A DNA stretch of 64,000 bases, taken from NCBI GenBank assembly GCA_012959275.1, contig DUDM01000042.1, positions 17,018 through 81,017 of the forward strand, in the 5' to 3' direction. Origin of the DNA: Candidatus Poseidoniales archaeon. GTDB taxonomy: Archaea; Thermoplasmatota; Poseidoniia; Poseidoniales; Poseidoniaceae. A model generated the notes under the pieces. The model was not told the origin of the DNA, did not search any database, and saw only the letters and a list, made by a program, of their open reading frames with translations. The position numbers and the translations under genes were made by a program. Below, piece after piece: positions 31,329 to 49,111 of the stretch (position 1 is the first letter of the stretch; every line of letters starts with the position of its first letter).

Positions 31329-31365
31329 GGCAAGGTTTCATCAGGGTGCAATAACAGGAGACTGC

Positions 31366-34300: not shown

Positions 34301-34671
34301 TAGCAGGATTGGGTGATACTGATATGATTACAATGGGACTAATAATCGGTGGCATTATTGCAGTCTTGATTTTAGTTGTAGTCTTGGTAAGAGGCGGAGG
34401 TGAGGATGAAGAATACCTTGAGGATGAAGATGATGTTTATCACCAGCAATATGCAACTGCAATGCAAGGTACCGAGCAATATGCTAACCCCGCTGCCACC
34501 CATGCCCAGGCTCAATACCAAGCACCTCAACAAGTTCAGGCTCAACACCCAGATCCAACCGTAGTTGGACAGATGAGAACAGATGGAAATGAATGGTTAG
34601 AATACCCCCATTCATCTGGAATGTGGTATAGTCGCGACACAGCTACCCGTACTTGGGTACGTCGAATTTAA
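31366..34671 (+). CDS. Giant surface adhesin-like protein: SBBP-type beta-propeller repeats, thrombospondin type-3-like Ca-binding repeats, C-terminal TM and Q-rich cytoplasmic tail
   Basis: N-terminal anchor RRLVFLLVTIFLTGYFL. Repeats such as GDIYITGSFRETATFGS..DCFIVKLNSNGDFQW. More than 15 DxDxDGxxDxxD-type motifs (DSDGDGWADEID, DADGDGYGDN). TM LIIGGIIAVLILVVVLV. The ORF stays open from 31291. Confidence 0.8.
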   Translation: MTSAIAVDSSVSRRLVFLLVTIFLTGYFLPIVANEESVMPLEELEALDSFDASARSGTGWSMMAAGSSNGNARFIDVHGATGDMVLAGQMDGGGQTISWDGISATSGDTVSFWMAGLDSGGNGSWVSVATAAGSNSPAINPGGLVVADNGDIYITGSFRETATFGSLSLTSSGYYDCFIVKLNSNGDFQWAQSLRGAADVVTGATTTWDVVWGTSIAAVPGGVVVGGFYLGNTDVGSNAGVSTSDGDIFVAKYTDSGQFQWSVEAKGNEMNEVHSMASNMAGDVWLATNFQDSMTFGSHTVSAAGSGHPVIAKIDGGGSWLDAQSGTTTSSTFLSGLAVNVAGEPILAGIFSGSLTMGSRTISSYGEDDGFITTFASGSWSFLTQVGSSTYDYLSDLQIDPSSGNAVISMASAGSISIAGQQFTSQGENDSIIASLDSTGAWSRMVSAHGSSDNWPGALAIDDLGNVAVAGTSSGMIDFSSTSAGSASPSNSFGPYAWHISGFGSADSDGDGVFDEDDNCPEDHNSGQEDHDSDGQGDACDSDDDDDGILDNNGDDCPTGELLWLSTSNALDPNSSTDWDMDGCKDSSSEDLDMDNDQKLDADDNCPRTAWDRSISVRPEWISEPSSDKDLDGCRDGDEDTDDDNDGVEDGNDNCPDETGTSSKGTIIGCPDRDGDGWADQIDDCPDTNGNSENGSRVGCLDSDGDGWADEIDALPLEPTQWIDSDGDSYGDNPNGNKADDCPNESGGSFEDRQGCKDSDNDGWSNPDVIWTIDDGADALPDNPTQWSDFDGDGYGDNYGNHSWTMTRDDSWPGEYVLLALNQDACPLQYGDSSLGEILGCNDKDGDGWADFIDAFPNDVNEYLDSDKDGFADGTDDCRNTRGGSQHDRKGCPDLDGDGWSDADAMWTIGNGADAFRDEPSQWADADGDGYGDNSEGIKADDCPDTFGTLDEEGFRGCPPSSKAKETEDDSLSEGSSNLAGLGDTDMITMGLIIGGIIAVLILVVVLVRGGGEDEEYLEDEDDVYHQQYATAMQGTEQYANPAATHAQAQYQAPQQVQAQHPDPTVVGQMRTDGNEWLEYPHSSGMWYSRDTATRTWVRRI
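32880..34210 (+). repeat. Array of degenerate Asp-rich Ca-binding (TSP3-like) coding repeats inside the adhesin gene
   Basis: Recurrent D-x-D-G-D-G-(W/Y)-x-D and DDCP(D/N) motifs are visible throughout the translation. Confidence 0.7.
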
Positions 34672-34681
34672 AGCGATTAAT

Positions 34682-34915
34682 TCAATCAAGAGGATGGCTT
34701 ATTCCTTCTTCACCTAGGGTCCAGCGAAGACATTTGATTACCCCATCGAGGGCTTTGGAATTTCTTGCAGCTTCCATCATTCCTTCTCGGTCACCATCAC
34801 TCTTACATTGGTCAAACCAAGCCTTCCATTTTTGTTTACGCTCTTGTGCACTTTCGAGCATTTCCTCAATTTCTTCCCAAGTTCTATCATAATGTCGAAT
34901 CGGAGTAGTCATCAT
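34682..34915 (-). CDS. Small hypothetical protein
   Basis: 77 aa from MMTTPIRHYDRTWEEIEEML. Last gene of the minus-strand operon. No family recognised. Confidence 0.4.
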   Translation of the reverse strand: MMTTPIRHYDRTWEEIEEMLESAQERKQKWKAWFDQCKSDGDREGMMEAARNSKALDGVIKCLRWTLGEEGISHPLD

Positions 34916-34977
34916 CAGCACCTCGGCAGCCCCTCCCCGTTTAGTGGCCCTTCTAAAGGTTACACCGGCATGCACTA

Positions 34978-36012
34978 TTAGTCATCATTAGGATATCTGA
35001 TACCGTTCCATTCAGAATCGGCTGGAACACTTTCTCTATCCCCAATTACACACCCATTTAGAATACAACCTTTTTGGATAACAGTATTTCTTCCGATGAT
35101 GCAATTCTCTATTTCACATCCTCTTGAGACGGATGCACCAGCCATCAATAATGAGTTCTTGACAATTGAACCTGCAGCAATAGCACTCCCTTTCAAGGCG
35201 ATACTACCGTCGCATCTACCTATGATATCGGATTCTGAGTTCGGGTTTTCTGGGATTTGTGTCCAAACCAAATCTCGGTTTTCAAGAATGATATTTTGGG
35301 CTTTAAGGAGATCTGAAGGGCGACCTATATCGAACCAAATTCCCTTTGTTAAACAAGCATAAAGCGGCATTCCAAGTTCAAGCATTTGCGGAAACACTTG
35401 CCTTGACCAATCGAACTTTTCATCCTCAGGAATTAAATCAAGCACTTCAGGTTCAAGGATATACAAACCTGCATTGATGACATTTGAGAATGCCTCTTGT
35501 GGACTAGGTTTTTCTTGAAACCTGCTGATCCAACCTTTTTCAAGATTTGAGTTTATCTCACCATCTCTAGTTTCTGAAAGCCCAACAACTCCATATTCTG
35601 AGACATTTTCTACCTGCCATAGGGCCATTGTAGCCATCGCTCCCTTTTCTTTGTGTAGGGCAAGCAATCCCGCGATATCAAAGGAGGCAAGTGTGTCTCC
35701 TGAGCCGACGATAAAAGTCTCAGTCAATTCCTTCGCCAGCAATTTCACAGAGCCTGCAGTTCCCATCGCAACTTCTTCTTCATTTACCCAAGCCTTGATG
35801 GCATCGGAATTCCATGATTCGACATGATTCGCTAGTGATTTACCACGATACCCAGTGGTTATGATTACTTCATTCACCCCTCCTTGGATAAGTGCATCTT
35901 TGACGAAGTCGATAACTGGGATTCCAACTACTTCGACCATCGGTTTTGGCCTGTGTAAAGTCAATGGACGTAATCTACTTCCTTGGCCACCAGCCATGAT
36001 GACGCCTTTCAC
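34978..36012 (-). CDS. Sugar-1-phosphate nucleotidylyltransferase with C-terminal left-handed beta-helix domain
   Basis: (M)KGVIMAGGQGSRLRPLTLHRPKPMV is the NTP-transferase G-loop. The C-terminus has hexapeptide-like repeats. GTG at 36012 gives the canonical MKGVI start, and GTG at 36021 is also possible. Confidence 0.85.
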   Translation of the reverse strand: MKGVIMAGGQGSRLRPLTLHRPKPMVEVVGIPVIDFVKDALIQGGVNEVIITTGYRGKSLANHVESWNSDAIKAWVNEEEVAMGTAGSVKLLAKELTETFIVGSGDTLASFDIAGLLALHKEKGAMATMALWQVENVSEYGVVGLSETRDGEINSNLEKGWISRFQEKPSPQEAFSNVINAGLYILEPEVLDLIPEDEKFDWSRQVFPQMLELGMPLYACLTKGIWFDIGRPSDLLKAQNIILENRDLVWTQIPENPNSESDIIGRCDGSIALKGSAIAAGSIVKNSLLMAGASVSRGCEIENCIIGRNTVIQKGCILNGCVIGDRESVPADSEWNGIRYPNDD

Positions 36013-36023
36013 AAAAATCACCC

Positions 36024-37073
36024 TCAGCGCTTTCGAGTAGCAGATATTTTCTTTCCCTTCTTCTTGGGTCGGAGACGGGCTTGCTGGGGGTTTGCATCAC
36101 TGTCCAATGTTCCACCAAGTGAGATATTTCCCTCTCCAAGTAGGGTTGAAATTAGGTCTTTGGCAACATCTTCGGATTCTGCACCGCTCTGCATTTCTGC
36201 ATCGACGCTTGCATTGTGGTCATCAATCCAAGATTGGCGCTCCTTTCGCTCTGCCTTCATAGCATCCTTGACTTCGGTTACTTGTTTGATAAGTTCTAAG
36301 GCCTTTTCATGGATTTCATTGGCCTTTTCTTTCTCAGCGACAAAGCCATTGTGGTGCCTATCTCCTTCGCTTTTGAGGAAATCGCGGTGGGCAAACAACT
36401 CATCGAGTTCTTTACCCTCTTTGTTTGCCTCAGATACTGCTTCCAACATTAATTTATGAGCAGAATCAGCCTCTGATTTCATCCTTGCAATTGTTCCTTC
36501 AATGTCATCAAGGTCAATTTTAATCAAAGCCTGCTGTTTCAGTTCTGGTTCAAGTTCAGCGATTCTACGACGCATTTCTTTAACCGCTTTCACTAATCCC
36601 TTTTCCTTTGACAAGGTGATTGTTCCAGAAGTTTCGAGCCTATTTTCTATGGACTTTACCTCAGCAGTTAACTTGTTGTATTCTGCTCCCACCGACTGTC
36701 CCTTGCGTGCTGTGTCCTTGTTTGATTTGTGTTGCCCAAACAACTCTCTCATTTGGGATTGGATGGAATTGCGTAATTCCTTGTGTTCTTTTATTCTCAC
36801 TCTAATAGCCTTGACAACTTCTAGGCGAGCATCGAGTTTCTCCCTGTGTTCCTTGTATTGACCCTGAACGGCATTGCGTTGTTCTGCAAACCTGTTTGCC
36901 GAATCATTGTGTTGACCGCGAATGTCGCGCAGTTTTGAGAGTTTTTTCTCCATCGACTGCAATTTGTCTCGCAGGTCTTCATCCTCGGCTACAACCTCGC
37001 TTGCTTTGGCATCGGTTTGTTCGCTCATAGGCCATGCGAGAACATTAACCGTTTCAATACTGTTCATGCCCAA
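36024..37073 (-). CDS. Archaeal coiled-coil protein (COG1340-like), paralog 1
   Basis: 349 aa, K/E/R-rich heptad-like sequence, with the central block LETSGTITLSKEKGLVKAVKEMRRRIAELE and a basic tail RLRPKKKGKKISATRKR. Confidence 0.65.
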   Translation of the reverse strand: MGMNSIETVNVLAWPMSEQTDAKASEVVAEDEDLRDKLQSMEKKLSKLRDIRGQHNDSANRFAEQRNAVQGQYKEHREKLDARLEVVKAIRVRIKEHKELRNSIQSQMRELFGQHKSNKDTARKGQSVGAEYNKLTAEVKSIENRLETSGTITLSKEKGLVKAVKEMRRRIAELEPELKQQALIKIDLDDIEGTIARMKSEADSAHKLMLEAVSEANKEGKELDELFAHRDFLKSEGDRHHNGFVAEKEKANEIHEKALELIKQVTEVKDAMKAERKERQSWIDDHNASVDAEMQSGAESEDVAKDLISTLLGEGNISLGGTLDSDANPQQARLRPKKKGKKISATRKR

Positions 37074-37095
37074 CTGTCAATCGGCTGATGCGTTT

Positions 37096-38859
37096 TCAAG
37101 TGCTGATGACACTAAGGACTTGCAGAATTAAGGCTGCGAATAAGGAAACTACACCACCTGCAAGTGAAATCAAACCAGTCAGTTTCGCTAATCTCTGGTT
37201 CCACTCGCTACGCACTCTGAGGTTGATGACTCGTCCTAAAATCAGATCCCCATTCTCATCTTCTAAGGAAATTGAAACCGTGGCTTCTCCAAGTCGTTCT
37301 GGAAGTAAGGTCTGCCAATTCATTTGTCCAACGTTGAGCAGGTTAGCAATCGCCGCTAGTACGTCATCATCACCTTCACTGGATAGGGCCATCTGGTCAT
37401 GCATTGAACTAATCATTCCACCCGCTGCAGGCAAGTTTAGGTTGAGGTGAATGTGGCCTGGCCGGAAATCCGGTGATTCTATTCGAAGCACTACTGAGCG
37501 GTCTTCTTGACCGTTATTGACCAGTAGGCAGAACAGGTTTGCCTGCTGATAAACAACATTCTCCATATCAACATCGAAAATCAAATCATTCTTTTTCAAA
37601 CTCTTGGTATCAACTCTCAAACTATGTTCCAAGCGGTCAAGAATCCTGAAGAATGATGGACAACGACTGCCGATTCTATCCAATAGTTGAGCCCAGACCT
37701 CATCATTGAAGAAAGGGTGGTCGAGTATCTCCTCAATATCATCTTCAAGGATAATCTCTGCAACTTCGCGATATCTTTCTTCATTAGAAAGTGAACCTCT
37801 GCGGTGTAAGTGAAGAATATAGAATAAGCGCTCTCGACCAATGACTGGGTCGAAGCCAGGTTGCAAAGCCGCCCTGAAGCGTTGCATGAAATCTTCAAAC
37901 CTCATACGTAGGAATGGGTCCATGTGAGTCAGCATCAAGTCAGAAAATACCTGTCCAAGTAAGGCCGGGTGGACTGGTGGCTCATAGGTTGAAAGAATAC
38001 CTCCAGCCTCTGCAGTTGAATAAGAATCTTCACGGCTAATTAGATGCAATCCCAAGGTCAGCATGGTCGTGCCAAGACTGACTAAAAATAGGGTTCCACC
38101 TCCGTCTTTTGTGGCATCTGAAAACAAACTCGCCAAAAGTAGCAAAAAGGTAAAACCTGCTAGTATTGCAGTTGTAGTGCGATTGCGTAGGGTTCCAGAA
38201 GTCATCTCTTCTAATGCTGGATATCCATGCATACTTGAGAAAGGTCTGCCCATCCGTTGAAACCGTTCTACTTCATCTGCCATGATTGATTGAGTAATGG
38301 CTAATCTTTGACGGGTAATCAGTAATCCCAACATCCATGCTGCAGAAACTACCAAAGCAAGGCCGGATAAGACAAAATTAAAACTGAGACCCAATGTATC
38401 TTCGATGCTATCTTGCCACCAACTAGGTGAATCTGCTCTCCAATTCCAAGACATTAATTCTAGCAAAATCATGATGCTAGGCAATAGCACGAGAAGATGA
38501 ATTCCTTTTGATAACATTAAGCGGTCAATTCGAAGTAAGCCCCTTTCAATTTTTTGCATTGATGCATGTTTTTCTTGATCCTTTTCACTCCACACATCGG
38601 CAGCATGTTCATTCGAAGCTTGGAGAATTCGGCGGTCAATATCTCGTTGGGCTTCGACCCTTTCCTCTTCTTCTTGGCTGAGCACACCAAATGATTGAAT
38701 ACCAGATGAAATGCGTTGTACTAAACTGCCTTTTTCTTTATCCTCGACTTCATCTTCGGGTTCTTCAACGACCTTTTTGTTTTTGATTGGTTTGGCTTTT
38801 GATAGGATGTCTGAGACCGTATCCTCGGCCTTAACTTCACTCTCATCCCCCTCCGCCAT
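37096..38859 (-). CDS. Hypothetical polytopic membrane protein with acidic N-terminus and large soluble C-terminal region
   Basis: About 588 aa from ATG 38859 (a TTG at 38898 would overlap the DtxR stop). At least 5 TM segments including a C-terminal one. No family recognised. Confidence 0.6.
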   Translation of the reverse strand: MAEGDESEVKAEDTVSDILSKAKPIKNKKVVEEPEDEVEDKEKGSLVQRISSGIQSFGVLSQEEEERVEAQRDIDRRILQASNEHAADVWSEKDQEKHASMQKIERGLLRIDRLMLSKGIHLLVLLPSIMILLELMSWNWRADSPSWWQDSIEDTLGLSFNFVLSGLALVVSAAWMLGLLITRQRLAITQSIMADEVERFQRMGRPFSSMHGYPALEEMTSGTLRNRTTTAILAGFTFLLLLASLFSDATKDGGGTLFLVSLGTTMLTLGLHLISREDSYSTAEAGGILSTYEPPVHPALLGQVFSDLMLTHMDPFLRMRFEDFMQRFRAALQPGFDPVIGRERLFYILHLHRRGSLSNEERYREVAEIILEDDIEEILDHPFFNDEVWAQLLDRIGSRCPSFFRILDRLEHSLRVDTKSLKKNDLIFDVDMENVVYQQANLFCLLVNNGQEDRSVVLRIESPDFRPGHIHLNLNLPAAGGMISSMHDQMALSSEGDDDVLAAIANLLNVGQMNWQTLLPERLGEATVSISLEDENGDLILGRVINLRVRSEWNQRLAKLTGLISLAGGVVSLFAALILQVLSVIST

Positions 38860-38894
38860 GATGCTCCACACCCGCTTCGGGTTGATGATGATTC

Positions 38895-39554
38895 TCAATG
38901 TTCATACTTGACGAGAATCCGTTTCATCAGTTCATCAGCCAATTGATATTCGTTTTTTTCGATTATTATCCCTTTAGGTGTTCTTTCAAGAGAAATGCCA
39001 GTTTTTATCCCAAATTCCTCTAATACTGAATTATCATTTTGTTGAATGAGAATTGAATAAACCGATGCCCTTTCACCTTCTCCAAGGTGCTTAAGCAGGA
39101 CTAATGATTCTGGAACTGAAATATTCACGTCTAGGTCATTGCCGCGTGGGATCTCCTTTCCATCTGGATTATGTGTTGGCTTACCCAATAGTAAATCTAG
39201 AGTTTCTTCTAGTTCATCTGTTAGGGCGTGTTCTAACATACAAGCATTTTCATGAGAATCGCCTTGAAAATCAAGCACATCGATTAGAAAACATTCTGCT
39301 AGACGGTGCTTCTTCTTCATCCTGCGCCCGCACTCTAAGCCTGATTCTGTAAGACGAAGACCCTTGTAAGGTTCATAATCAACTAGTCCTTTTGTTGCCA
39401 ATCTTTGAATCATTTCAGTGGCGCTGGCTGGAGCCACATCCAATGCTTTAGCAACCTCACCAGTTTTGATAATAGTGGTTGGATTAACTTCCCAAAATTC
39501 GTATAGAGTCTCCATGTATTCATCTTCAAATTCCTGAAAATGACCAGAGCCCAC
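38895..39554 (-). CDS. DtxR/MntR-family metal-dependent transcriptional repressor with C-terminal FeoA/SH3-like domain
   Basis: EDEYMETLYEFWE..VAKALDVAPASATEMIQRLATKGLVDYEPYKGLRLTESG..KKKHRLAECFL fits the wHTH plus dimerisation helices of DtxR. GTG start. Confidence 0.8.
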   Translation of the reverse strand: MGSGHFQEFEDEYMETLYEFWEVNPTTIIKTGEVAKALDVAPASATEMIQRLATKGLVDYEPYKGLRLTESGLECGRRMKKKHRLAECFLIDVLDFQGDSHENACMLEHALTDELEETLDLLLGKPTHNPDGKEIPRGNDLDVNISVPESLVLLKHLGEGERASVYSILIQQNDNSVLEEFGIKTGISLERTPKGIIIEKNEYQLADELMKRILVKYEH

Positions 39555-39593
39555 GAATATGCACTGGAGGGTCCCACTTCATCAAGGTGTGCC

Positions 39594-42197
39594 TCAAGAG
39601 ATAAGAGCACGGAATTCAGTTTTACATGCAGGGCAACGAGCGGTGGCTGGTCTTTGTTCGAGTGGGACTCTCAATTTTGCGCTACAAGTAGGGCAGCCAA
39701 GGATATCTTCTGATGAGGAGGATGAAAGTTCTTCATCTACCTCTTCAATTACTTCATCTTCCACTTCATCATCAAAGAAATCTAATTCATCATCCAAGTC
39801 CAATTCTTCATCGAGTTCTTTTTCGGCTAGAACGGGGGTAGGCAAGGTGATGCTTTCAACCTTGAATTGGTGTTTGCAAGATGGGCAGGACACACTGCCG
39901 CTATAGGAGGATGGAACCTTGAGTCCTTGCTGGCAAGAAGTACACGTAATTTCGCGTTTCTCATCGCTGGCTAATGCACTGGACTTCTCCCTCTCTGCTA
40001 ACCTTTCTTCGCGTTCCCTTTCCCGTTTTATTTTACGCTCAGTTCTCTGCTCTGAATCTCCATACCAAGAACTACCTAATCTAATCACTAAGGCAGCACC
40101 AAGGGCAATAGCAAGACCTGTGCCAATAGCCATGAAGGGGAGAAGTTCAGTTGATGATTGCTGGCTTGAAACAGCATCCATGTCAGATAGGAAGGTATTG
40201 CTCGAAGTGAGGATATTGCCATCATTCCAACGGCAGGTCAGTGGGACATCATCACCAGCAGGCCAGGAATCAATAGTGAGTTCCACTTCCTTTGATGTTT
40301 CAACTCTGCCAACATTTACCTCGTCAAATACAGTGCCATCGCTGCCAATTAGTAGCATCATTCCTTCTTTGGACTGTACACCAGCATTACTGATGGTGCA
40401 GAAAATAGACACTTCCCCTCCGTTTTCAGGCCTTTTAGGGGTGCTGAGTGGATTGATAGTTAATTCCAATTCTGGCCTTTGACTAGGCAATGCAAGGGTG
40501 ATGACTTGACTATTTTCAAGGCCCCAATCGATTCTATCAACATCGATATAGACCAAAGCGCTGCCATCGAATAAACCCAAATCTGACTGTAGATTTCTAC
40601 GTCCTGCTTGAAGTTCTAACTGCATCACTAATCTTTCATCACGCTGGCCTTGTACCAATAATCCAATCGATATATCGAGTAATCTTGAGGGGCCATCATC
40701 CATCTCAATGCTCCATGTGGCTTCAATGCCCTCAACAGCATCCCATGTTATGGCTTCAATTTCAATATTGAGGCCTTGTTCTGTTTCAGAATCTATGTTT
40801 TCTATTCCCGATAGATCACTTGAAACTAGAGAATCACTACTCGAAACCTTCCAACTAATATTATGGGAACCATTTGTTTGAACAAGGTGAGAGGAGGTTA
40901 ATTCAAGACTGCTACCAAGAGGTATTGACACCACTTCCCCTTTACTCCATCCTCCATCCTCTTTCAACCATAATGAGGCAGTTGAGTCCGCATCACCATT
41001 ATTGTGAATTAATATAGATGCTAACACTTCATCTCCCACATGCCATGGTCCTCCTGATAATGAAACTCCTTGTCCCCCAGTTAAGATGAGGTTACCTGCA
41101 GTCATTGTAAAAGAATGGCTGGCATTGAGGTTGCTTGAAGTTGAAACTCTAACGCCTTCTTCTATGGCGCAGAATATTTCCCCAGGTCTTGCCTCTGTGC
41201 TAATATTCCATGATTGATTTGTCGAAATAGCGATGGATGTGGAAGCAAATAGTAGAACCGTCTCTTCATCTGCAGCAATGCAACCAATATTGCCGCTCCA
41301 ATCTGCCTCTCCCTGATTTACAAGAAGCAATGTGAATTGGAAATTGTCACCAAGGTCAGGTTCTTCCCCAAGACCTGTTAATGATAGTTGTAATTCTGCT
41401 AATGGGGGTGCAAGAATACTATACGAAAGGTTGTTTGAATCATCACTTGAATCTCCATCACTAAGGTTGGAAAGGCTTGCCTGCACCACTAGTAAGCCCT
41501 CACTTACTTGTGGCAATTGGATGATGACATCGAAAGTTGAATCGGCACTCAGGTTGATACTCTGGTTAACATCAAGAATCACATTCTGTTGACTACTTAT
41601 TACTCTGATAGAGCCGTTCCAACCGATGTCTCCAGCATTGACTATCGGAATGGTCAATCGAACCCAGTCGCCATCTCTGATGCTGCTATTGCCTGTATCA
41701 ACTTGGGAATCATTCACTGGCTCAGCCAACCATTGCGCTAAACTTGCTAAGCCTACATCCAAAGGACGTAAGCGATTACTACTTCCATTCCAGAAATTGG
41801 CATAACCAACTGGTAGAGACTGGCTGATGTCTCCACTCAAACTGAGGTTAATTTGATGTTGACCTGGTTGTATCCCAGTTAGTTCTAATGAAATCGCTTG
41901 ATTGCCGCTGGCGCTTAATTGGACCGCTTCGCTGGCGCTGGCCATGATGACGCCTTCAGATGTTGTTATCACAGCACTCAGGCTTGCATTTGCTGCATTA
42001 TCATCGACTTCTTCTAGGCTCAAGTTTATCCAAATACTGCCAACACCTATGCCGGAATCACCTTCAATGACTACAGAACTAATGTTGATTGCTATTCCGC
42101 CCGCTGGTTCGGCGTTGGCTGCTGGAGCCAATGACATTAGGAGCAGTCCAAAGACTACAGCCAAGGTCAAACTCTGCCCCATCAATCCTTTGGGCAT
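39594..42197 (-). CDS. Large secreted/surface protein (Ig/CARDB-like repeats) with C-terminal TM and cytoplasmic tail carrying two zinc ribbons
   Basis: Signal peptide MPKGLMGQSLTLAVVFGLLLMSLAPAANA. The ectodomain is about 690 aa and beta-rich. TM LPFMAIGTGLAIALGAALVI. The tail holds CTSCQQ..CPSCKHQFKV, an acidic linker, then CPTCSAKLRV..CPACKTEF. Confidence 0.75.
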   Translation of the reverse strand: MPKGLMGQSLTLAVVFGLLLMSLAPAANAEPAGGIAINISSVVIEGDSGIGVGSIWINLSLEEVDDNAANASLSAVITTSEGVIMASASEAVQLSASGNQAISLELTGIQPGQHQINLSLSGDISQSLPVGYANFWNGSSNRLRPLDVGLASLAQWLAEPVNDSQVDTGNSSIRDGDWVRLTIPIVNAGDIGWNGSIRVISSQQNVILDVNQSINLSADSTFDVIIQLPQVSEGLLVVQASLSNLSDGDSSDDSNNLSYSILAPPLAELQLSLTGLGEEPDLGDNFQFTLLLVNQGEADWSGNIGCIAADEETVLLFASTSIAISTNQSWNISTEARPGEIFCAIEEGVRVSTSSNLNASHSFTMTAGNLILTGGQGVSLSGGPWHVGDEVLASILIHNNGDADSTASLWLKEDGGWSKGEVVSIPLGSSLELTSSHLVQTNGSHNISWKVSSSDSLVSSDLSGIENIDSETEQGLNIEIEAITWDAVEGIEATWSIEMDDGPSRLLDISIGLLVQGQRDERLVMQLELQAGRRNLQSDLGLFDGSALVYIDVDRIDWGLENSQVITLALPSQRPELELTINPLSTPKRPENGGEVSIFCTISNAGVQSKEGMMLLIGSDGTVFDEVNVGRVETSKEVELTIDSWPAGDDVPLTCRWNDGNILTSSNTFLSDMDAVSSQQSSTELLPFMAIGTGLAIALGAALVIRLGSSWYGDSEQRTERKIKREREREERLAEREKSSALASDEKREITCTSCQQGLKVPSSYSGSVSCPSCKHQFKVESITLPTPVLAEKELDEELDLDDELDFFDDEVEDEVIEEVDEELSSSSSEDILGCPTCSAKLRVPLEQRPATARCPACKTEFRALIS

Positions 42198-42248
42198 GCA
42201 GGGGTGTGAATACCTTTGTGGCAGTGGTGCACCCTTTAACCAACCTTT

Positions 42249-43136
42249 ATGTCGGTATCTCGCATCGAGCGCCCGTTCAACATGGACCCAGCAGCCCTCC
42301 TTTCAATGCCGAGCGATTTACTCGCCAAGGCTGTGCTCCACCGCAGAGAGCAATTACTGGAGTCCTTACCCGAGCAAATAAGTCAACTAAAGAGCGAACT
42401 AGGAGGTACAAGTCCGGTTGCAACAGAGACTGGAAATAAGCGGGATGATGTCAATACCAAGGTTGCCTCGCTTAAACTTGAGAGAAACAAATACAAGGTC
42501 GAAGCCTTTGATTTAATCCGTCGAAGTAAAGAATTGCGAGAATTATTAATTTCAGAAGGTCGCTTGAAGAATCCCGATCCACAATGGGCCAAAGATAAGT
42601 TGGTCGAACAAATTGCACAAATGGAGCAAGATTTCGAAACTAGAGCCGGAGACCATAAGGCGGAGCGTAAATTCCTCAGGACAATAAAGGAATTAACCAG
42701 TAAGCATCAAGACGAAGTGAAGGCAAGAATTGCGTCAAACCCGGAGTTAGGGGAGTTGAACGAAATACAATCTAAGATTAAACCACTTTTTGAAGCAGCA
42801 GAAAAAGCCCATGATGCAATGGTGGAGTTAGTTGGTGAATCAGATGAGTTGCATACTTCTTGGACATCAGTTGTCGAGGAACAACGAATTTTACATTCAC
42901 GATTATTCAGAGCAGAATCAGCGCTTGAAAACTCGCTAAAGGCAACTGAATACTGGAAGAAACGCTTGCAAGATGGTTTTGGAGACTTAGGCGTCGCTGG
43001 TTTCCCAGACTTATATGCAGCTGCAAATAATATCAAGGAAGGTGGAATGTCGAGTATAGCAATACGCCGTCAAGCCAAATTGGAGAGGGAAGCAAAAGAG
43101 TCCACTAACAAGGCAAAGGAAGGTGAAGAAGAATGA
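42249..43136 (+). CDS. Archaeal coiled-coil protein (COG1340-like), paralog 2
   Basis: 295 aa (alternative ATG at 42282). Heptad-rich. The central block FETRAGDHKAERKFLRTIKELTSK parallels the other paralogs. ATGA overlap with the next gene. Confidence 0.6.
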   Translation: MSVSRIERPFNMDPAALLSMPSDLLAKAVLHRREQLLESLPEQISQLKSELGGTSPVATETGNKRDDVNTKVASLKLERNKYKVEAFDLIRRSKELRELLISEGRLKNPDPQWAKDKLVEQIAQMEQDFETRAGDHKAERKFLRTIKELTSKHQDEVKARIASNPELGELNEIQSKIKPLFEAAEKAHDAMVELVGESDELHTSWTSVVEEQRILHSRLFRAESALENSLKATEYWKKRLQDGFGDLGVAGFPDLYAAANNIKEGGMSSIAIRRQAKLEREAKESTNKAKEGEEE

Positions 43137-45133
43137 GTGATGATGTCTCTTTTTCATCCATTCTTGAGGACGCAACTCCCAATAAGCATGATTTGAAGCG
43201 TCGTTCAGGGATACTGGCTCATCTTCAGAAGTCCCTCGAGAAAAACCACAAAGGTGCGAGTATCAACTTTAGTGGCAACACCTCCCTCGGATTATCTCCA
43301 CGTCGTGGCGGAATCGAATTTTCAGTTTCTATACCAGAAGGAAAAACTGCAACTGCATTTAGCAAGAAATTTTCATGGGAATTGAATGGTAGAGGTCTTG
43401 AGGATGTCATCGTACACGATAATCGTTCAACACCAACAATTCATGGAAAAAACGACCGCACTAGTATTCCGGTTAGAATATCCATCGGCGATGCAACTGC
43501 TGAGAATAAAGTTGCTTTGCTAAGGCTTTTGAGTGATTCTGATAACCGGATTTCCAATTACCTATTGGCTGTTCAAAACTGGGTCCTTCATCGCGACTTA
43601 GCGGAACAATCAGGTGGACTTTCACCCTTTGCTTGGAGTATAGTTGCTTTGACTCACTTGCGTTCAATAAATTTGATTTCAGACCCATTCTTAGCCGATT
43701 CCGGAACTGTTGTTGAAGATGGAAAGAGGAGTCTAGATGTCGGTTTAGTTGAGTCCACTAAAACTATTTGGCAAGGAGGTGATGAGGAAGCGGAGTCGAT
43801 GTTCAAGTCATTCCTAACTTCATTGCAAGCACTCCAATTACCTGCGAAGAAAATCATCTCTCTACGAGTGCCAGACGGTGTTGGAAGAAAAGAATGCAAT
43901 TTCAAAGCACCTGATATTGGCAAACTTTCAGCAAATCAGAGGGTGCCTCATCTGTGGCCAATTCTTGACCCATTCGACCTAACTAAGGATATTTCTGAAT
44001 CACTAACTCTAGAGGGGGCAAAGAGAATTCTTGTTGAAGCCGCAAGAGAAGGCCTCAGTTCCGAAGAACTATTTTCAACTATTAAGGAAGATTTGCTAGC
44101 AGCAGATGAAGACAAAGATTTGTTTGCTGACCTTAGAAGCCGGCCTACTCCTGAAATTGAATCCGAAGCAAAGGAGTTGAGGAAGAGGAAGAGCTTGATA
44201 GAGGCAGAAGTTGATTCTATTAAAGTGGCAAGGCAAGCACAAATCAGGATAGTTGAAGCCTTACGTGGAATCGTCAATGACACAAGCGAGTTGAGAACTG
44301 AACAAAGAAAAATAATCCCTCAGTTAGGAAATAGGCGTAAGGAAATAGATAAATTACGTCAGCAAAGAGATGATATTAACAGTAAAATAGTCTTGCCTAC
44401 CAAAGCAATCGAGGAAGAAATAATTTTGGTTTATGAGAAATTATGTGGCGCGGCAAAGTCATTCCGTTATCCAAGCCCAGAGGAAGAAGTTCGCCTTTTC
44501 ATCTACTTCTTAGAATTACAAGAGATGTTCAAAGCCGCGGTCATTAGTTCAGAATGCCACCATGTATTACAACAATTATCCGGCCAACAAAGGGCTGCAG
44601 TAAAAGAATTGAAATCATTTGAATCAGAGACAGAGTCAATCAAGTCAGATGCTTTGGAAGGAATAACAAGTGCAAAGGAATTGAAAGGAAATTACCACGA
44701 AATGAAGGATATTGACCGGCAAATCGGAAAATTGTTGAGGAATCTGAATTCTAAGCGTGATGACTTAAGAGAGGCCAATCGTGAATTAGGCAGATTAGAT
44801 GCTTGGTTGAGGATACAGAAGAAGGACAGCAATAAGCCAAGCGGAAAGCGCCAAGGAAGTAAGGGTGGAAGTTCAGACAGACCCCATCAAAGCAGAGTTC
44901 CAAAGGTTGACATCAAGGAAGTAAAGAGAAAAGCCGCTAGCGGTGAATCAATGTCTCTGGAAGATTTCGGGGCCTTATTGTCAAGTGGAGGGCTTTCAAA
45001 TATAATCGCAGATGAGCCTCAACCATCGAGAAGCCGGCGAAAGAAATCGAACAAGAAGAGAGTTGGGGCCACATCAGGTAATCGTGGAACAGGTCGACCT
45101 GACCTCGAAGGGCGCGCAAACAAGAGGCGCTGA
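43133..45133 (+). CDS. Hypothetical protein: degenerate PAP/Cid1-like nucleotidyltransferase-like N-terminal half, COG1340-like coiled coil (paralog 3), basic S/R/K-rich tail
   Basis: The N-terminal half aligns by eye to the Pol-beta NTase/PAP-associated pattern (FSGNTSLGLSPRRGGIEFSV; IPVRISIGD; NRISNYLLAVQNWVLHRDL..SGGLSPFAWSIVALTHLR), but the catalytic acidic residues are replaced. The C-terminal half is coiled coil ending SLEDFGALLSSGG, followed by the basic tail. Confidence 0.6.
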   Translation: MSDDVSFSSILEDATPNKHDLKRRSGILAHLQKSLEKNHKGASINFSGNTSLGLSPRRGGIEFSVSIPEGKTATAFSKKFSWELNGRGLEDVIVHDNRSTPTIHGKNDRTSIPVRISIGDATAENKVALLRLLSDSDNRISNYLLAVQNWVLHRDLAEQSGGLSPFAWSIVALTHLRSINLISDPFLADSGTVVEDGKRSLDVGLVESTKTIWQGGDEEAESMFKSFLTSLQALQLPAKKIISLRVPDGVGRKECNFKAPDIGKLSANQRVPHLWPILDPFDLTKDISESLTLEGAKRILVEAAREGLSSEELFSTIKEDLLAADEDKDLFADLRSRPTPEIESEAKELRKRKSLIEAEVDSIKVARQAQIRIVEALRGIVNDTSELRTEQRKIIPQLGNRRKEIDKLRQQRDDINSKIVLPTKAIEEEIILVYEKLCGAAKSFRYPSPEEEVRLFIYFLELQEMFKAAVISSECHHVLQQLSGQQRAAVKELKSFESETESIKSDALEGITSAKELKGNYHEMKDIDRQIGKLLRNLNSKRDDLREANRELGRLDAWLRIQKKDSNKPSGKRQGSKGGSSDRPHQSRVPKVDIKEVKRKAASGESMSLEDFGALLSSGGLSNIIADEPQPSRSRRKKSNKKRVGATSGNRGTGRPDLEGRANKRR

Positions 45134-45171
45134 ATTTGAATAATGAAGCCTTGAAATGGGTATATTCTCCA

Positions 45172-45654
45172 ATGCCGAGTACTTTTTCATTATCTTTTTT
45201 ACAACACTGTAAAGGCTTAATTTTCAAAGCCACTGGCGAATCATATCCCTTGGAATTGATTCGTACTATGCCAGTTGATACATTGGTGGGAAGTTTTTTC
45301 CTCATCCCTGAAACTTATTCTAGACAGCAAGCAATGGATGAATTGAAGGTATTTGGGCTACTATGGTCGATGCGTATCGACGATAATTCTTCTCGGATAT
45401 TGACCTTTTTAATCGCTGAAGAATTCCGAGGGCGAGGTCTTGCATCTGATGTGTGGATTAGGTTTGTTGAAACAGGAATTGCAGAAGGAATACTGAATGT
45501 ATCATTAGAGGTTAGGGAGGAAAACGATATTGCCTATGAATTCTATTTGCGAAGAGGATTGCAAGCCAAAGGAAAATTGTCTCAATATTATCGACAAAGT
45601 GTTGGAGTTGCAATGTTCGGCCCATTACAATGCCCCCAGCCACAATCTCAATGA
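45172..45654 (+). CDS. GNAT-family N-acetyltransferase
   Basis: Acetyl-CoA motif A, LIAEEFRGRGLASDVW, followed by AYEFYLRRGL. An alternative TTG start lies at 45136. Confidence 0.75.
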   Translation: MPSTFSLSFLQHCKGLIFKATGESYPLELIRTMPVDTLVGSFFLIPETYSRQQAMDELKVFGLLWSMRIDDNSSRILTFLIAEEFRGRGLASDVWIRFVETGIAEGILNVSLEVREENDIAYEFYLRRGLQAKGKLSQYYRQSVGVAMFGPLQCPQPQSQ

Positions 45655-46022
45655 CCCCTCTTCATCTGCAGTTGATTGTGCCAATGCGAATCTTGGAGAC
45701 CTTGAGGTCTGATGCCTCTGCTTCTCTTGCAGTTATTATCGATATTGAGGCCTTGCCAATTTTCACTTCTCCTTCAGGTAGTGATGCTTCAGCAATTTCC
45801 GGAAGGTGGGCCGCATTGATGCAGTCTTTGGCCCCAGTGAGTCAGAAATCTGCAAGTGGGCCAATGGAAGAGTTGGTGATTTCAGGAACTGAAGGAGAGG
45901 TTATCGCCAGCCGTCTTGGGGACAGCCATTGGCTATTATTGGTGGTAGACGATAAATCGATGCTCGGTCGAGCAAAGTATGCAATCGCCGAGTCCAAAAG
46001 CCTCTTACAAAGAAAACTCTAG
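45651..46022 (+). CDS. Roadblock/LC7 (MglB-like) domain protein
   Basis: About 123 aa. The pattern ASLAVIIDIEALPIFTS..AAISGRWAALMQSL..MEELVISGTEGEVIASRLGDSHWLLLVVDDKSMLGRAKYAI fits the Roadblock fold consensus. Its ATG overlaps the GNAT TGA (ATGA). Confidence 0.6.
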   Translation: MTPLHLQLIVPMRILETLRSDASASLAVIIDIEALPIFTSPSGSDASAISGRWAALMQSLAPVSQKSASGPMEELVISGTEGEVIASRLGDSHWLLLVVDDKSMLGRAKYAIAESKSLLQRKL

Positions 46023-46702
46023 TCGAAGAGTGGTCCAAGGATAACAGGGCCTTGAGGGCCTACTTCAATCGCTTGCTTTTCCATTGAATGGCGAACGTGG
46101 CGCATCTTCTCAAGTTGGAGTGTGCGCACAATAGTGCCATTTCTACGGTCGAGCCCCAAAGAGATGATGGCATCTGCGAGGAAGCCTTCATTGCCGCCTA
46201 ATTCCGCATGGCTTCCAACATTACGTTCTGTAATAATGAAGACATTGAGATTTTGAGCCCTCAAAAAATCAAAGAATCCGAACATTTTCTTGCGCATTTG
46301 CTCATCGATGGTAGTCAGGCTGTAGATTGCACCTAATGAGTCTAGGACGAAGCAAGTGAATCTGTGACCGTGTTGCTGTTTGAAGTGTTCGATCATTCTG
46401 CGGGTGAATTTGAGATAATCCATGTTTTCATTTTCCCTTCGCAATTCTGTAAAATCGGTGATTTGAAGGTTGTGAGGCAGGTTCAATCCGAATGATTCGC
46501 AAGAGCGCAAGAGGCTATCAACTGATTCTTCAACAGTACAGTAGAGGCCAAATTCTCCAGTTCTTGTTAGGTGGTTTGATAGGAGGGTCATGCAAAACCC
46601 AGTCTTCATTGAGCCAGGTGGGCCTGTAACCAGTGAAAGATAAGGTGGTCTAACGTCGTTTTGAATGACCCGCTCGATTCCTGCAATGCTTCCTAGAAAC
46701 AT
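46019..46702 (-). CDS. KaiC/RecA-superfamily ATPase (single domain) with deviant Walker A
   Basis: IAGIERVI..LSLVTGPPGSMKTGF (Walker A with Met in place of the Gly before Lys). Walker B FVLDSLGAIY. FIITERN and LQLEKMRHVRHS blocks are typical of archaeal KaiC-like proteins. A TTG start at 46738 is also possible. Confidence 0.7.
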   Translation of the reverse strand: MFLGSIAGIERVIQNDVRPPYLSLVTGPPGSMKTGFCMTLLSNHLTRTGEFGLYCTVEESVDSLLRSCESFGLNLPHNLQITDFTELRRENENMDYLKFTRRMIEHFKQQHGHRFTCFVLDSLGAIYSLTTIDEQMRKKMFGFFDFLRAQNLNVFIITERNVGSHAELGGNEGFLADAIISLGLDRRNGTIVRTLQLEKMRHVRHSMEKQAIEVGPQGPVILGPLFD

Positions 46703-46850
46703 GGTGCTCGCCCTAGCCACAGTCGAATAGGACTTCAACTTATGGAGGGGATTGAGTAGTTGCTACACTGTGTTTCTTCGCTAGAGAATCGCAACACTAT
46801 TCAACATTGCACTTTCCAAGATTACTTTCAGTCCAGTTCCACGATTAAAC

Positions 46851-46948
46851 CTGAATAGTAAAGACACATTTTTGGTCCAATTCCCCATAGGCGTTGAATA
46901 TTAATTCAATGCTAATGAAGACTTTGAAACAGTGTAGTTACTATTCAG
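46851..46948. repeat. Perfect 11-bp inverted repeat CTGAATAGTAA / TTACTATTCAG separated by 76 nt in a long divergent intergenic region
   Basis: Read directly at 46851-46861 and 46938-46948. A third copy of the core ACTATTCA lies at 46796-46803. An adjoining imperfect inverted pair is CTACACTGT (46763-46771) / ACAGTGTAG (46930-46938). Confidence 0.6.
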
Positions 46949-46989
46949 CCCTTAGGCGAGTTGGGTTGATAGGGTTCATATGGGGAATG

Positions 46990-47004
46990 CGAGTCGCCGA
47001 CTCG
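46990..47004. promoter_or_regulatory. Palindrome CGAGTCG-C-CGACTCG about 40 nt upstream of the coiled-coil gene start
   Basis: 7-bp arms with a 1-nt spacer, read directly. Its function is unknown. Confidence 0.3.
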
Positions 47005-47044
47005 TCATCAAGGGAACTTGATGATAAGGCTGCGTGGTTTCAAG

Positions 47045-47938
47045 ATGAGCGAACTGAAGAATCTGTTGGAAGATAAGAGGAAGCTAGTCGATAAGAAAGC
47101 TACCGAATATAGACAGGTTCGAGACGATTGGAACGGCCGTACAAAAGACCATTTGACTGTGCGTAACAACCTCAACGGAGAAGTTCGTGAGTTGATTATT
47201 AATGTTCGTTCACAACGTGAATTAAGAGAGGAAAAGAATACCGAAGTTCGCGATAAAAAACAACTTCGAGCAGACTGCAATAAGTTAGTCAGAGAATCCA
47301 AAGAAAAGTTGGAAGTATTGCGCGGCGGCAGCCAACAAAAAGCCGCTCCCCAACAAGACGGCCACCGAGGTCGCCGTGAAAAGAAAGTGACGGTCCACAG
47401 CCTACGCAGAGATATGCAACGCTTTGAGCGAGAGTTCGAGATGGGGCGCCACACCGGTAAAAACGAGAAGAAAATCATGAAGAAGATGAAGGAGATACGT
47501 TCCCAAATCCGTTCGATGGAACTCTCGGAAGAAGGTAATGAAGAATTGAAGGCAATCCGCGAAGAATTACGCATCGCCATGGAATCCCAAGAAGAAGCAC
47601 ATATCGAAGTCACTAGAGCAGCCGAAGAAGCCCAACAGGCTCACGAGTTGATGATTGTCTGGAATAGCGAGGTAGACAAAAAGCGCGAAGAGGCAGAAGA
47701 TGCCCATCGCCGCCTACGCCGCTCAAAGAAAGAAGCAGACCAAGCCCACCACCACTACATCGTATCCATCCGCTGCCTTCACAGCACTCAGTCCATCCTA
47801 CGCTCAATCCGTGGAATCGAGAGTGGTTCAGCCCCTTCCAAGTCTGCCCGCGAAGAGGTGGCAGACTTGATGAGTAAATTGATGAGTGGTGAGACTCTGA
47901 CAACAGAACAGTTGATGGAGTTGCAGAGATTCGATTGA
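47045..47938 (+). CDS. Archaeal coiled-coil protein (COG1340-like), paralog 4
   Basis: MSELKNLLEDKRKLVDKKATEYRQVRDDWN.., with the central block FEREFEMGRHTGKNEKKIMKKMKEIRSQIRSME and a C-terminal VADLMSKLMSGETLT motif. The ORF stays open from 47018. Confidence 0.65.
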   Translation: MSELKNLLEDKRKLVDKKATEYRQVRDDWNGRTKDHLTVRNNLNGEVRELIINVRSQRELREEKNTEVRDKKQLRADCNKLVRESKEKLEVLRGGSQQKAAPQQDGHRGRREKKVTVHSLRRDMQRFEREFEMGRHTGKNEKKIMKKMKEIRSQIRSMELSEEGNEELKAIREELRIAMESQEEAHIEVTRAAEEAQQAHELMIVWNSEVDKKREEAEDAHRRLRRSKKEADQAHHHYIVSIRCLHSTQSILRSIRGIESGSAPSKSAREEVADLMSKLMSGETLTTEQLMELQRFD

Positions 47939-47953
47939 TTGGAGTTGCCCAAT

Positions 47954-49111
47954 ATGATCAGCCGCGACCAAATCTCCTCGGTCTTGGATGACTATGACAG
48001 ATTGAAGTTGAGAATCGGCATGACAGCGAGTCATTCAGCCCTCGATATCTGCGATGGCGCTATCGAAGAGGGCTTTCCTACCGTAGCATATTGTCAAAAG
48101 GGCAGAGAAAAAACTTACTCTCATTACTTCAAGGCCCAGCGCACAGTTGCAGGTAGAGTCCGCAGAGGAATGGTTGACAAAGCCGTCGTTCTCGATAAAT
48201 TCAGCGATGTCTTAGAGCCTAGTTTTCAGCAAGGAATGAGAGACCGTAATGTGATCTATATCCCAAACCGTTCTTTCACTTCTTATTGTGGAATGGACGC
48301 AATAGAGAATGATTTCAATGTACCAATGTTTGGCAGCCGTAACATGTTGAGAATGGAAGAGAGAACTGAAGAGCAGGATTATTATTGGATTCTGGACAAA
48401 GCCGGACTTCCTTATCCTGAAGCAATCGAAGACCCCCAAGATATCGATTGTCTAGTCATTGTCAAGTTGCACCATGCAGAGAAAAAACTCGAAAGAGGAT
48501 TCTTTACCTGTGCATCTTATGAGGAGTATCAACAGAAGTCTCAAGATTTAATCAAGCAAGGTGTCATCGATGCAGCCAGTTTAGCAGGAGCAAGAATCGA
48601 GCGCTATGTTATTGGACCAGTCTTCAACCTCAACTTCTTTTACAGCCCATTGGAAGAGGAGATGCCAAAACTGGAATTATTGGGAGTTGATTGGAGATTT
48701 GAATCATCCCTAGATGGTCATGTACGCCTACCCGCACCACAACAAATGACCATGCCAGCCCATCAGCAAATTCCAGAAATGACCGTTGTTGGTCATAATT
48801 CAGCAACAATTCGAGAATCTCTTCTTGAAACGGCATTCGAATTGGGTGAAAAGTTCATCAGCGCTAGCAAGGAGCACTATGACCCAGGTATTATCGGCCC
48901 ATTCTGCCTACAAACATGTATCGATAAAGACATGAATTATTCAATATATGATGTTGCACCGAGAGTTGGCGGCGGTACAAATGTACATGTTAGCGTAGGC
49001 CACCCATACGGTAATGCAACTTGGAGAAAACCGATGAGCAGTGGTCGCCGAATTGCCTTGGAACTTCGTAGAGCAGCCGAGCAAGACCGCCTTTTGGAAG
49101 TCCTAACTTGA
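47954..49111 (+). CDS. purP: 5-formaminoimidazole-4-carboxamide ribonucleotide (FAICAR) synthetase PurP
   Basis: RIGMTASHSALDICDGAIEEGFPTVAYCQKGREKTYSHYF matches the PurP N-terminal signature (GSHSAL..GREK.Y). ATP-grasp length. The ORF stays open from TTG 47939. Confidence 0.85.
   Translation: MISRDQISSVLDDYDRLKLRIGMTASHSALDICDGAIEEGFPTVAYCQKGREKTYSHYFKAQRTVAGRVRRGMVDKAVVLDKFSDVLEPSFQQGMRDRNVIYIPNRSFTSYCGMDAIENDFNVPMFGSRNMLRMEERTEEQDYYWILDKAGLPYPEAIEDPQDIDCLVIVKLHHAEKKLERGFFTCASYEEYQQKSQDLIKQGVIDAASLAGARIERYVIGPVFNLNFFYSPLEEEMPKLELLGVDWRFESSLDGHVRLPAPQQMTMPAHQQIPEMTVVGHNSATIRESLLETAFELGEKFISASKEHYDPGIIGPFCLQTCIDKDMNYSIYDVAPRVGGGTNVHVSVGHPYGNATWRKPMSSGRRIALELRRAAEQDRLLEVLT

Follow-up and report, generated by a model that had tools for sequence, protein, structure and literature searches.

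COG1340 is described as 'uncharacterized archaeal coiled-coil protein' and bears the JGI label 'coiled-coil DUF342 family protein', and a 2005 survey counted it as a highly conserved archaeal group of unknown function. Its Pfam counterpart, DUF7121 (PF23435), is listed as a domain of unknown function (DUF), and our search of the literature for DUF7121, PF23435, or COG1340 returned no functional study. A sequence search against the PDB detected no solved structure of DUF7121; its best match, FrmR (E 0.014), looks like chance, and we do not regard it as a structural relative. These results agree with an initial annotation of the DNA analyzed here, which had called the family uncharacterised in archaea. 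A second point of comparison is provided by the nucleotidyltransferases Cid1, URT1, and TUT7, and we found no paper in the literature searched on a Cid1-type or uridylyltransferase enzyme in archaea or in Marine Group II. The Lin28-interacting N-terminal module of human TUT4 and TUT7 is inactive: it has a Cid1-type fold without catalysis and has been retained for binding. Here we analyze a 64,000-nt stretch of DNA (the window) from a 1.92-Mb metagenome-assembled genome, 77% complete, of the Poseidoniales (Marine Group II), and in it four open reading frames (ORFs) for coiled-coil proteins that we call A, B, C, and D. As judged by profile comparison, A, B, C, and D are true, strongly diverged paralogues of the DUF7121/COG1340 family.

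The four ORF predictions of the initial annotation were confirmed. A (36024-37073, minus strand, 349 aa) is a DUF7121 coiled-coil protein; B (42249-43136, plus strand, 295 aa) is a strongly diverged DUF7121 copy with an acidic C-terminal end; C (43133-45133, plus strand, 666 aa) is a two-part protein; and D (47045-47938, plus strand, 297 aa), whose stop codon abuts purP, is a canonical DUF7121 copy that lacks a basic tail. Because a homologue that is 94% identical to A is 347 aa long, the true start of A is probably M3, at 37067. Lysine, glutamate, and arginine together account for 29-36% of the residues in A, B, D, and the C-terminal half of C, and for 19% in the N-terminal half of C.

Composition-adjusted BLASTP among the four proteins gave a best E-value of 0.007 and matched C to no other. 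This is unconvincing, and it is the outcome that the initial annotation had said would speak against its grouping of the four as a COG1340-like family. Therefore, we built profiles. Using hhalign, we found that A aligns with D over 275 columns (99.6%, E 2.7e-24), for which a second tool gave E 1.1e-23 over 285 columns; B aligns with D over 170 columns (97.9%, E 3.5e-13), and A with B over 195 columns (95.7%, E 1e-8). A shallow profile of C, with 15 near-identical rows, matches D only in a 31-column C-terminal motif (E 8.8e-5). Once the C profile had been deepened with approximately 50 orthologues from other genera, its coiled coil aligned with A colinearly (E 8.2e-10 and 2.1e-9). Residues 321-666 of C align with A over 281 columns (96.2%, E 2.1e-9) and with a pan-archaeal D-type profile, built from an alignment with rows down to 22% identity, over 247 columns that are colinear end to end (97.1%, E 6.6e-11), identifying residues 321-566 (44093-44830, plus strand) as a fourth coiled coil of the DUF7121 type. 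B and C are the sole pair without a significant profile-profile match (E 0.0044). As a null we used reversed alignments, which preserve both composition and heptad periodicity; sixteen reversed-profile comparisons gave E-values from 5e-4 to 0.5, and those for the C coiled coil were 0.0045 or worse. It is because the profile E-values lie far beyond these nulls that we regard the four as paralogues. The relationship that the initial annotation had proposed among these K/E/R-rich coiled coils is thus significant by profile-profile comparison, although not by BLASTP alone, and hhalign combined with reversed nulls separates homology from composition in the manner for which that annotation had recommended an alignment.

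Membership in the Pfam family, strictly defined, is limited to D, since A and B score below the gathering cut-off of 29 bits and C is unmatched. D scores 42.5 bits (E 7e-11) over positions 39-303 of the 307 in the DUF7121 profile, A scores 26.5 bits (E 5e-6), and B scores 17.6 bits (E 1.25e-3 in a genome search). Searches of C with Pfam found no DUF7121 match, and with Pfam and NCBIfam together C and its stand-alone orthologues gave just scattered, weak coiled-coil matches and no DUF7121. In a large protein collection, precomputed PF23435 matches are present in every A homologue (107/107) and every B homologue (28/28); C homologues have no such match, yet some carry the JGI label COG1340. D itself finds 236 cluster representatives at E <= 1e-3. 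When the genome is searched with the Pfam hidden Markov model (HMM), only A, B, and D are recovered, all inside the window, and our own four HMMs, one per group, find no fifth copy among 4832 genome ORFs, a result that is provisional because the genome is incomplete. The genome-wide count is therefore four copies in this partial genome, all of them in the window and none elsewhere, in agreement with the clustering that the initial annotation had asserted.

DUF7121 was found in 147 of the 151 Thermoplasmatota genomes sampled, including all 101 of high quality, mostly in one or two copies, and it occurs also in Haloferax, Sulfolobus, and Methanosarcina. The copies at 20 outgroup loci are of two types: type 1 scores 200-340 bits with the D model, and type 2 scores roughly equally with the A and D models. 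A maximum-likelihood tree resolves six groups, each monophyletic with 100% support, in which D joins type 1 (support 94/81), A and B join type 2 (support 85/77), and B and C sit on very long branches. On this phylogeny, D is orthologous to the type-1 gene found across the phylum, and A is a descendant of the type-2 lineage; B probably descends from type 2 as well, with moderate support, and the position of C, given its very long branch, is unsettled. B and C are extra copies specific to Poseidoniales.

The N-terminal half of C, overlooked in the initial annotation, does not belong to the coiled coil. Residues 1-320 (43133-44092, plus strand) have a nucleotidyltransferase fold of the Cid1/URT1/TUT7 type, comprising a palm and a PAP-associated domain. 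C orthologues at 28% identity match the Pfam families MTPAP-like_central (E 1e-31) and PAP_assoc (E 3e-12), and the C family profile finds TUT7, TUT4, URT1, and Cid1 in the PDB at E 2e-41 to 2e-37 (TUT7, E 2.2e-41). Even the window domain alone, in a phmmer search of the PDB, matches Cid1 (E 3.3e-4, residues 20-302) and URT1 (E 7.5e-4). Likewise, an AlphaFold2 model of C (mean predicted local distance difference test score, pLDDT, of 81) matches Cid1, URT1, and TUT7 in Foldseek at E 1.2e-14 with target-normalised template modelling (TM) scores of 0.69-0.78. Most genera of this family have a C with the N-terminal Cid1-type domain. C orthologues from the order's other two families, and from some members of this one, are stand-alone coiled coils of 320-350 aa without the nucleotidyltransferase, and they match profile positions ~326-660 only.

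The fold is retained in the window protein and the catalytic signature, hG[GS]...DxD followed by a third Asp, is not. All 30 orthologues sampled from six other genera keep FGS...GDxDLCL...VDIS, whereas C of the window reads SGN...GGIEFSV...VRIS: the GS motif is lost, and in an alignment to Cid1 the residues G-I-E stand opposite D-M-D and an R opposite the third Asp. The same degenerate site is present in all seven other species of the genus for which the nucleotidyltransferase region was recovered, at identities down to 45%. At the DNA level, comparison with a 90%-identical relative (P0042) gave a ratio of nonsynonymous to synonymous substitution rates (dN/dS) of 0.15 for the nucleotidyltransferase domain; the values for the coiled coil and the tail of C were 0.07 and 0.09, respectively. 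By this measure the nucleotidyltransferase domain is under purifying selection despite its degenerate active site. Because its catalytic aspartates have been replaced by G, E, and R and it has nevertheless been kept by selection, we read residues 1-320 of C as a predicted pseudoenzyme. With three Asp and the GS motif lost, tailing activity is not expected of this protein, and the genus-wide loss of all three catalytic carboxylates from a domain that remains conserved argues for a role in binding rather than in catalysis. Our own HMMs found no second, active nucleotidyltransferase copy among the genome ORFs; with 77% of the genome in hand, this negative is provisional too.

The initial annotation had described a central block shared by A, B, and D, and the profiles do align one in A (residues 146-167), B (129-149), and D (131-151), with the family consensus LE..(q/f)(E)T.(g)...(K)E(K). 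In A the block is LETSGTITLSKEKGLVKAVKEM (36573-36638, minus strand), which hhalign aligns to the blocks of D and B; its consensus over 102 orthologues is Ek..ETrggms.kKEKEtm.kiK.M, and in the AlphaFold2 model it lies at a short break (149-153) between helices 2 and 3. The block of B, FETRAGDHKAERKFLRTIKEL (42633-42695, plus strand), is placed by the B-D and A-B alignments and has the consensus mE..feT.AGdHK.E.KFlr, and hhalign likewise places that of D, FEMGRHTGKNEKKIMKKMKEI (47435-47497, plus strand). The equivalent segment of C reads T..D...vPSL.rE...FS.FFELQ.

A C-terminal motif had also been claimed for all four proteins. The motif itself holds, and the register quoted for A and D does not: the common core, G-[E/G]-x-[L/M/I]-[S/T], comes directly after the hydrophobic helix that the initial annotation had quoted. 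It is represented by GETLTTEQLMELQ in D and GESMSLEDFGALL in C, whereas A (GEGNISLGGTL) and B (EGGMSSIAIRR) carry weaker forms. In D, residues 267-297 (47843-47935, plus strand) end in LMSGETLTTEQLMELQRFD and correspond to the pan-archaeal consensus GEKLSTEDLMxLQ, the hallmark of the family. Residues 302-323 of A (36105-36170, minus strand), DVAKDLISTLLGEGNISLGGTL, are aligned by hhalign with D and C, have the consensus VAD..V..LL..GsLtfGGt, and are followed by a Lys/Arg tail. In C the motif (KEVKRKAASGESMSLEDFGALLSSGG) and a disordered Arg/Lys/Gly tail occupy residues 589-666 (44897-45133, plus strand); by itself this motif aligns with the C-terminus of D at E 1.1e-9, and it is invariant or nearly so across C orthologues. 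The basic tail that was said often to follow the motif is found in A and C, where it is disordered and rich in Lys and Arg; B and D have none.

Monomer models from AlphaFold2 were used for A and C, and in both the DUF7121 part is an all-helical structure of approximately 300 aa built from a few very long helices. The A model (mean pLDDT 78) has helices at residues 33-124, 128-148, 154-184, 191-293, and 301-314, which are 92, 21, 31, 103, and 14 residues long, respectively. The coiled coil of C has helices in the same order as A, at 339-416, 423-438, 449-507, and 521-566 (78, 16, 59, and 46 residues); its C-terminal region adds short helices at 594-603, 609-617, and 620-623, and pLDDT falls below 50 from residue 625. 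The best PDB matches of the A model in Foldseek are weak ones to SMC coiled-coil arms (5XG2, E 5.7e-4; 5NNV, E 5e-3), with TM scores up to 0.41 normalised to the query and 0.54 normalised to the target. Since these matches are SMC coiled-coil arms, the model suggests that A folds as a long antiparallel coiled-coil hairpin. The fold search returned only generic coiled-coil matches for A, and we assign it no more specific fold.

We next describe the gene cluster in which the four paralogues lie, for which operon structure was deduced from gene spacing and conservation. Its left arm (34682-42197, minus strand) is a run of six genes spaced by -4 to 39 bp that encode, in order of transcription, an 867-aa surface protein with a CARDB domain and cytoplasmic zinc ribbons (39594-42197), a DtxR-family repressor (38895-39554), a 600-aa membrane protein without a Pfam match (37096-38898), A (36024-37073), an NTP_transferase with an LbH domain (34978-36021), and a 97-aa protein (34682-34975); Pfam identified the domains of the surface protein, the repressor, and the NTP_transferase. 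The plus-strand unit comprises B, C, a GNAT gene (45136-45654), and a Roadblock/LC7 gene (45630-46022). A KaiC-like ATPase gene (46019-46738, minus strand) lies between this second transcription unit and the third, in which D is directly followed by purP (47939-49111, plus strand); these four neighbours were likewise assigned by Pfam. The initial annotation had placed each of the four paralogues in a different operon. The units that hold them are three, not four, because B and C share one operon, in which the stop codon of B and the start codon of C overlap by 4 bp (ATGA). B and C are translationally coupled, and the overlap is retained at 20 of the 23 orthologous loci.

Gene order is the same in the contigs of relatives at 45-70% and at approximately 28-45% identity, and C orthologues are present in 114 of the 121 Poseidoniales genomes sampled (54 of the 56 of high quality). 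At 20 further loci the constant core consists of the surface protein, DtxR, membrane protein, and A genes and then B, C, and D, and of the 23 Poseidoniales loci examined nearly all retain its left-arm part. Most large-genome lineages have the GNAT, Roadblock, KaiC-like, and PurP genes. In small-genome lineages of the sister family, B, C, and D are consecutive and those four genes are absent at that position; they therefore vary by lineage. Outside Poseidoniales, the co-occurrence with neighbouring genes that the initial annotation had proposed as a check fails, since no family recurs next to DUF7121 across the 20 loci, where the neighbours include acetyl-CoA synthetase, SHMT, adenylosuccinate synthetase, SRP54, an M18 peptidase, and ribosomal P1. 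With intervening genes that are lineage-variable and no recurrent neighbours outside the order, the suggestion of a modular scaffold serving several local systems loses its footing. The layout fits tandem duplication within one conserved cluster better than it fits a shared scaffold, because the sister family has B, C, and D side by side.

B and the left arm diverge from a shared promoter region (42198-42248). A TATA-like CCTTTAT(T) lies approximately 35 nt upstream of Met12 of B and is conserved order-wide, and Met12 is invariant in 19 orthologues; in the window, the box (42244-42250) includes the 'ATG' at 42249 that the longest-ORF call of B uses. Translation of B probably begins at the ATG at 42282 (Met12), giving a protein of 284 aa, and the position of the box relative to Met12 suggests that the B transcript is leaderless or has a very short leader. 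Just upstream of the box is a clade-specific conserved element (42204-42223 in the window; also L006-L015 and L045-L052). It is a perfect palindrome in one genus (ACCCACCCTT/AAGGGTGGGT), and sister-family loci have the palindrome AAGGTCAC-N3-GTGACCTT. The window genus has the 20-mer GTGTGAATACCTTTGTGGCA, without a clear palindrome, which is identical in L004 and L005, where C is 45% identical to C of the window. Positions 42198-42248 of the window contain neither AAGGTCAC-N3-GTGACCTT nor any other clear palindrome. The DtxR-family repressor encoded next to these elements may bind them, and they may have diverged together with it.

Several further observations concern the surroundings of these genes. 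The Roadblock/LC7 ORF is probably shorter than called, since 112 aa are called in a 90%-identical relative (L078); with a start near 45684 it would therefore not overlap the GNAT gene. The KaiC-like ATPase is a single-domain protein whose Walker A motif, GPPGSMKT, has Met in place of Gly in GxxxxGK[ST], and its gene and the Roadblock ORF converge, with an overlap at the 3' end of the ATPase gene. Just upstream of the cluster, and also in syntenic relatives, is a gene for a 1126-aa secreted or anchored protein (31291-34671, plus strand) with many Asp-rich DxDxDGxxDxxD repeats (calcium-binding, thrombospondin type 3-like) and a C-terminal membrane helix. A purine-biosynthesis gene comes directly after a DUF7121 gene in two unrelated contexts: purP after D in many Poseidoniales, as at 47939-49111, and adenylosuccinate synthetase after a type-2 copy in two other Thermoplasmatota families. 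SRP54 follows a type-1 copy in two loci. The loci outside the window concerned here are L063 (10562-11815), L075, and L077. At one outgroup locus (L069) a type-2 copy is followed by an NTP_transferase gene, as is A here, and at two others (L058 and L059) two DUF7121 copies lie 1-9 kb apart. Two D homologues from other archaea are fusions: in P0262 DUF7121 is joined to a HAD-type phosphatase, and in P0161 a KH_2 RNA-binding domain comes after it, an arrangement that the gene caller may have created. Members of DUF7121 are sometimes annotated as 'phosphoserine phosphatase', and a fusion of the P0262 type could explain that label.

Given these results, our best guess is that A, B, C, and D are elongated adaptor subunits that are probably linked to RNA. 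As non-enzymatic proteins they would associate by way of their coiled coils, the likeliest pair being B and C, and the C-terminal G(E/G)xLS helix-turn motif that they have in common would be displayed to one and the same partner. The disordered Lys/Arg/Gly tails of A and C may bind nucleic acid, most plausibly RNA, and C in this genome would act as a non-catalytic binding module, by analogy with the inactive module of TUT4/TUT7. The link to RNA is suggested, weakly in each case, by the fusion of C to an active-looking terminal uridylyltransferase (TUTase) in sister genera, by the one DUF7121 protein with a KH_2 domain, by a match of A to Seryl_tRNA_N (E 0.009), the tRNA-binding arm of seryl-tRNA synthetase, and by the disordered basic tails themselves. 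We consider it highly probable that the evolutionary part of this explanation is correct, and the RNA-adaptor part is tentative, closer to doubtful than to even. Taken as a whole, an explanation that combines paralogy, a conserved cluster, a dead domain, and RNA-linked elongated adaptors has in our estimation a slightly better than even chance of being right.

A number of points weigh against this explanation. Molecular function, partners, and the RNA link are all deduced rather than directly evidenced. The sister family and some members of this one lack the TUTase fusion, and here the enzyme domain is inactivated; therefore, tailing cannot be what the conserved role of the coiled coils depends on. 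The KH fusion is a single case that could be a gene-call artefact, and the HAD phosphatase, the other fusion partner, does not point to RNA. B and C, lacking a significant profile match to one another, are proposed as a pair only because their genes are coupled, and the oligomerisation of coiled coils cannot be read from monomer AlphaFold models. Finally, the membrane proteins and the metal repressor of the left arm fit a role at the membrane at least equally well.

Such a role would make the coiled coils a membrane-associated skeleton or tether under the control of the DtxR-family metal repressor, docking on the 867-aa protein's zinc-ribbon tail and/or on the 600-aa membrane protein, with the basic tails binding acidic lipids. 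The surface protein, DtxR, the membrane protein, and A do form one packed operon that diverges from B-C and is kept in nearly all 23 loci, the intergenic region has clade-specific elements that are perfect palindromes in two clades, and the A fold resembles long coiled-coil arms. However, DUF7121 does not lie beside these membrane proteins or DtxR outside Poseidoniales, the models predict neither a membrane segment nor an amphipathic anchor in any of the four, the intergenic region of the window has no palindrome, and the fusion partners found elsewhere are soluble enzymes, so that we judge the tether unlikely. A different doubt concerns the cluster itself, which might be a relic of tandem duplication in a stable gene order, with paralogues that act independently and neighbours that are uninformative. 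The contiguity of B, C, and D in the sister family and the paired copies 1-9 kb apart in L058 and L059 are what such a relic would leave; the whole 25-kb region is syntenic between genera, including the housekeeping genes pdxS, the S3Ae ribosomal protein gene, and ferredoxin; and the neighbours outside the order are unrelated housekeeping genes. Against this, the B-C overlap has outlasted deep divergence in 20 of 23 loci, an argument that at least this pair is co-produced stoichiometrically; the C-terminal motif has been preserved in all four proteins, a hint that they have a partner in common; and the core survives in streamlined genomes of 1.2-1.5 Mb that lack the accessory genes. We therefore consider a mere relic rather unlikely.

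The resemblance of the four proteins could also, in principle, reflect low-complexity coiled-coil composition bias without homology, and it is true that adjusted BLASTP never falls below E 0.007 and finds nothing for C and that B against C is non-significant even by profiles. Yet profile E-values of 1e-8 to 1e-24 over 170-285 colinear columns contrast with E >= 5e-4 for reversed profiles, a motif order is common to all four, every A and B orthologue has a Pfam match, and the groups of the tree are each monophyletic at 100% support, with D joining type 1. A composition-only origin is thus extremely improbable, and on the profile evidence we reject it among A, B, and D and between C and either A or D. 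At the other extreme, the four paralogues may constitute a single heteromeric platform of coiled coils acting on RNA 3' ends in Marine Group II, which in most genera of the family would carry a eukaryote-type uridylyl/adenylyl transferase and here a non-catalytic substrate-recognition module, like the dead module of TUT4/TUT7; we regard this bolder proposal as quite improbable. If it were true, it would give functional work a first point of entry to a family that nearly all archaea possess, and it would reveal in an abundant ocean lineage both RNA tailing machinery and the decay of that machinery into a pseudoenzyme. Membership in an anti-phage defence system was also considered and rejected: PADLOC gave only weak matches, of A to the JetC arm (20.6 bits) and of B to DruC (16.3 bits), and none for C, D, GNAT, Roadblock, the KaiC-like ATPase, or either membrane protein.

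DUF7121/COG1340 is a widely conserved archaeal family without an assigned function, and the four-copy, order-wide cluster, the coupling of B with C, and the fusion to an RNA-tailing domain offer routes into that function. The adaptor and RNA hypotheses are testable even though Marine Group II is uncultured. No major concept is changed as yet; the value of these findings is that an open question becomes more tractable.

Compared with known systems, the paralogues stand at different distances. The antiparallel helical architecture of the A model recalls the arms of SMC and Rad50, a resemblance of architecture only, and A through D differ from those proteins in having neither an ATPase head nor a hinge. 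An SMC, Rad50, or SMC-related identity was rejected, since NCBIfam scores are 9-18 bits against cut-offs of 300-1087 (for the SMC models, 11-18 bits against cut-offs above 500) and fall in coiled-coil stretches only, and the models have no globular head. The inactive module of TUT4/TUT7 (PDB 6IW6) is among the fold matches of the C model, at rank 50; there, however, a dead module stands beside an active one in the same protein, while here the 77%-complete genome yielded no active copy. With Cid1, URT1, and TUT7 (PDB 4FHX, 7XS4, 8OEF), residues 1-320 of C share the two-lobed fold, and C orthologues of sister genera share GS...DxD...D as well; the differences are that in this genus the catalytic Asp residues have become Gly, Glu, and Arg and GS is lost, and that the domain of C is fused to an archaeal coiled coil. 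The likeness is broadest with DUF7121/COG1340 itself: D passes the Pfam cut-off and A, B, and the C coiled coil are homologous at the profile level, the length class of ~290-350 aa and the all-helical architecture agree, and the motifs follow in the same order, with RDxLN repeats, LE..T...KE, A..AH, and a C-terminal GEKLSTEDLM.LQ. This locus differs from other members of that family in having four copies instead of the usual one or two, in a divergence that leaves B under the Pfam threshold and C missed, and in its additions, namely the basic tails on A and C and the fusion of C to a nucleotidyltransferase domain.

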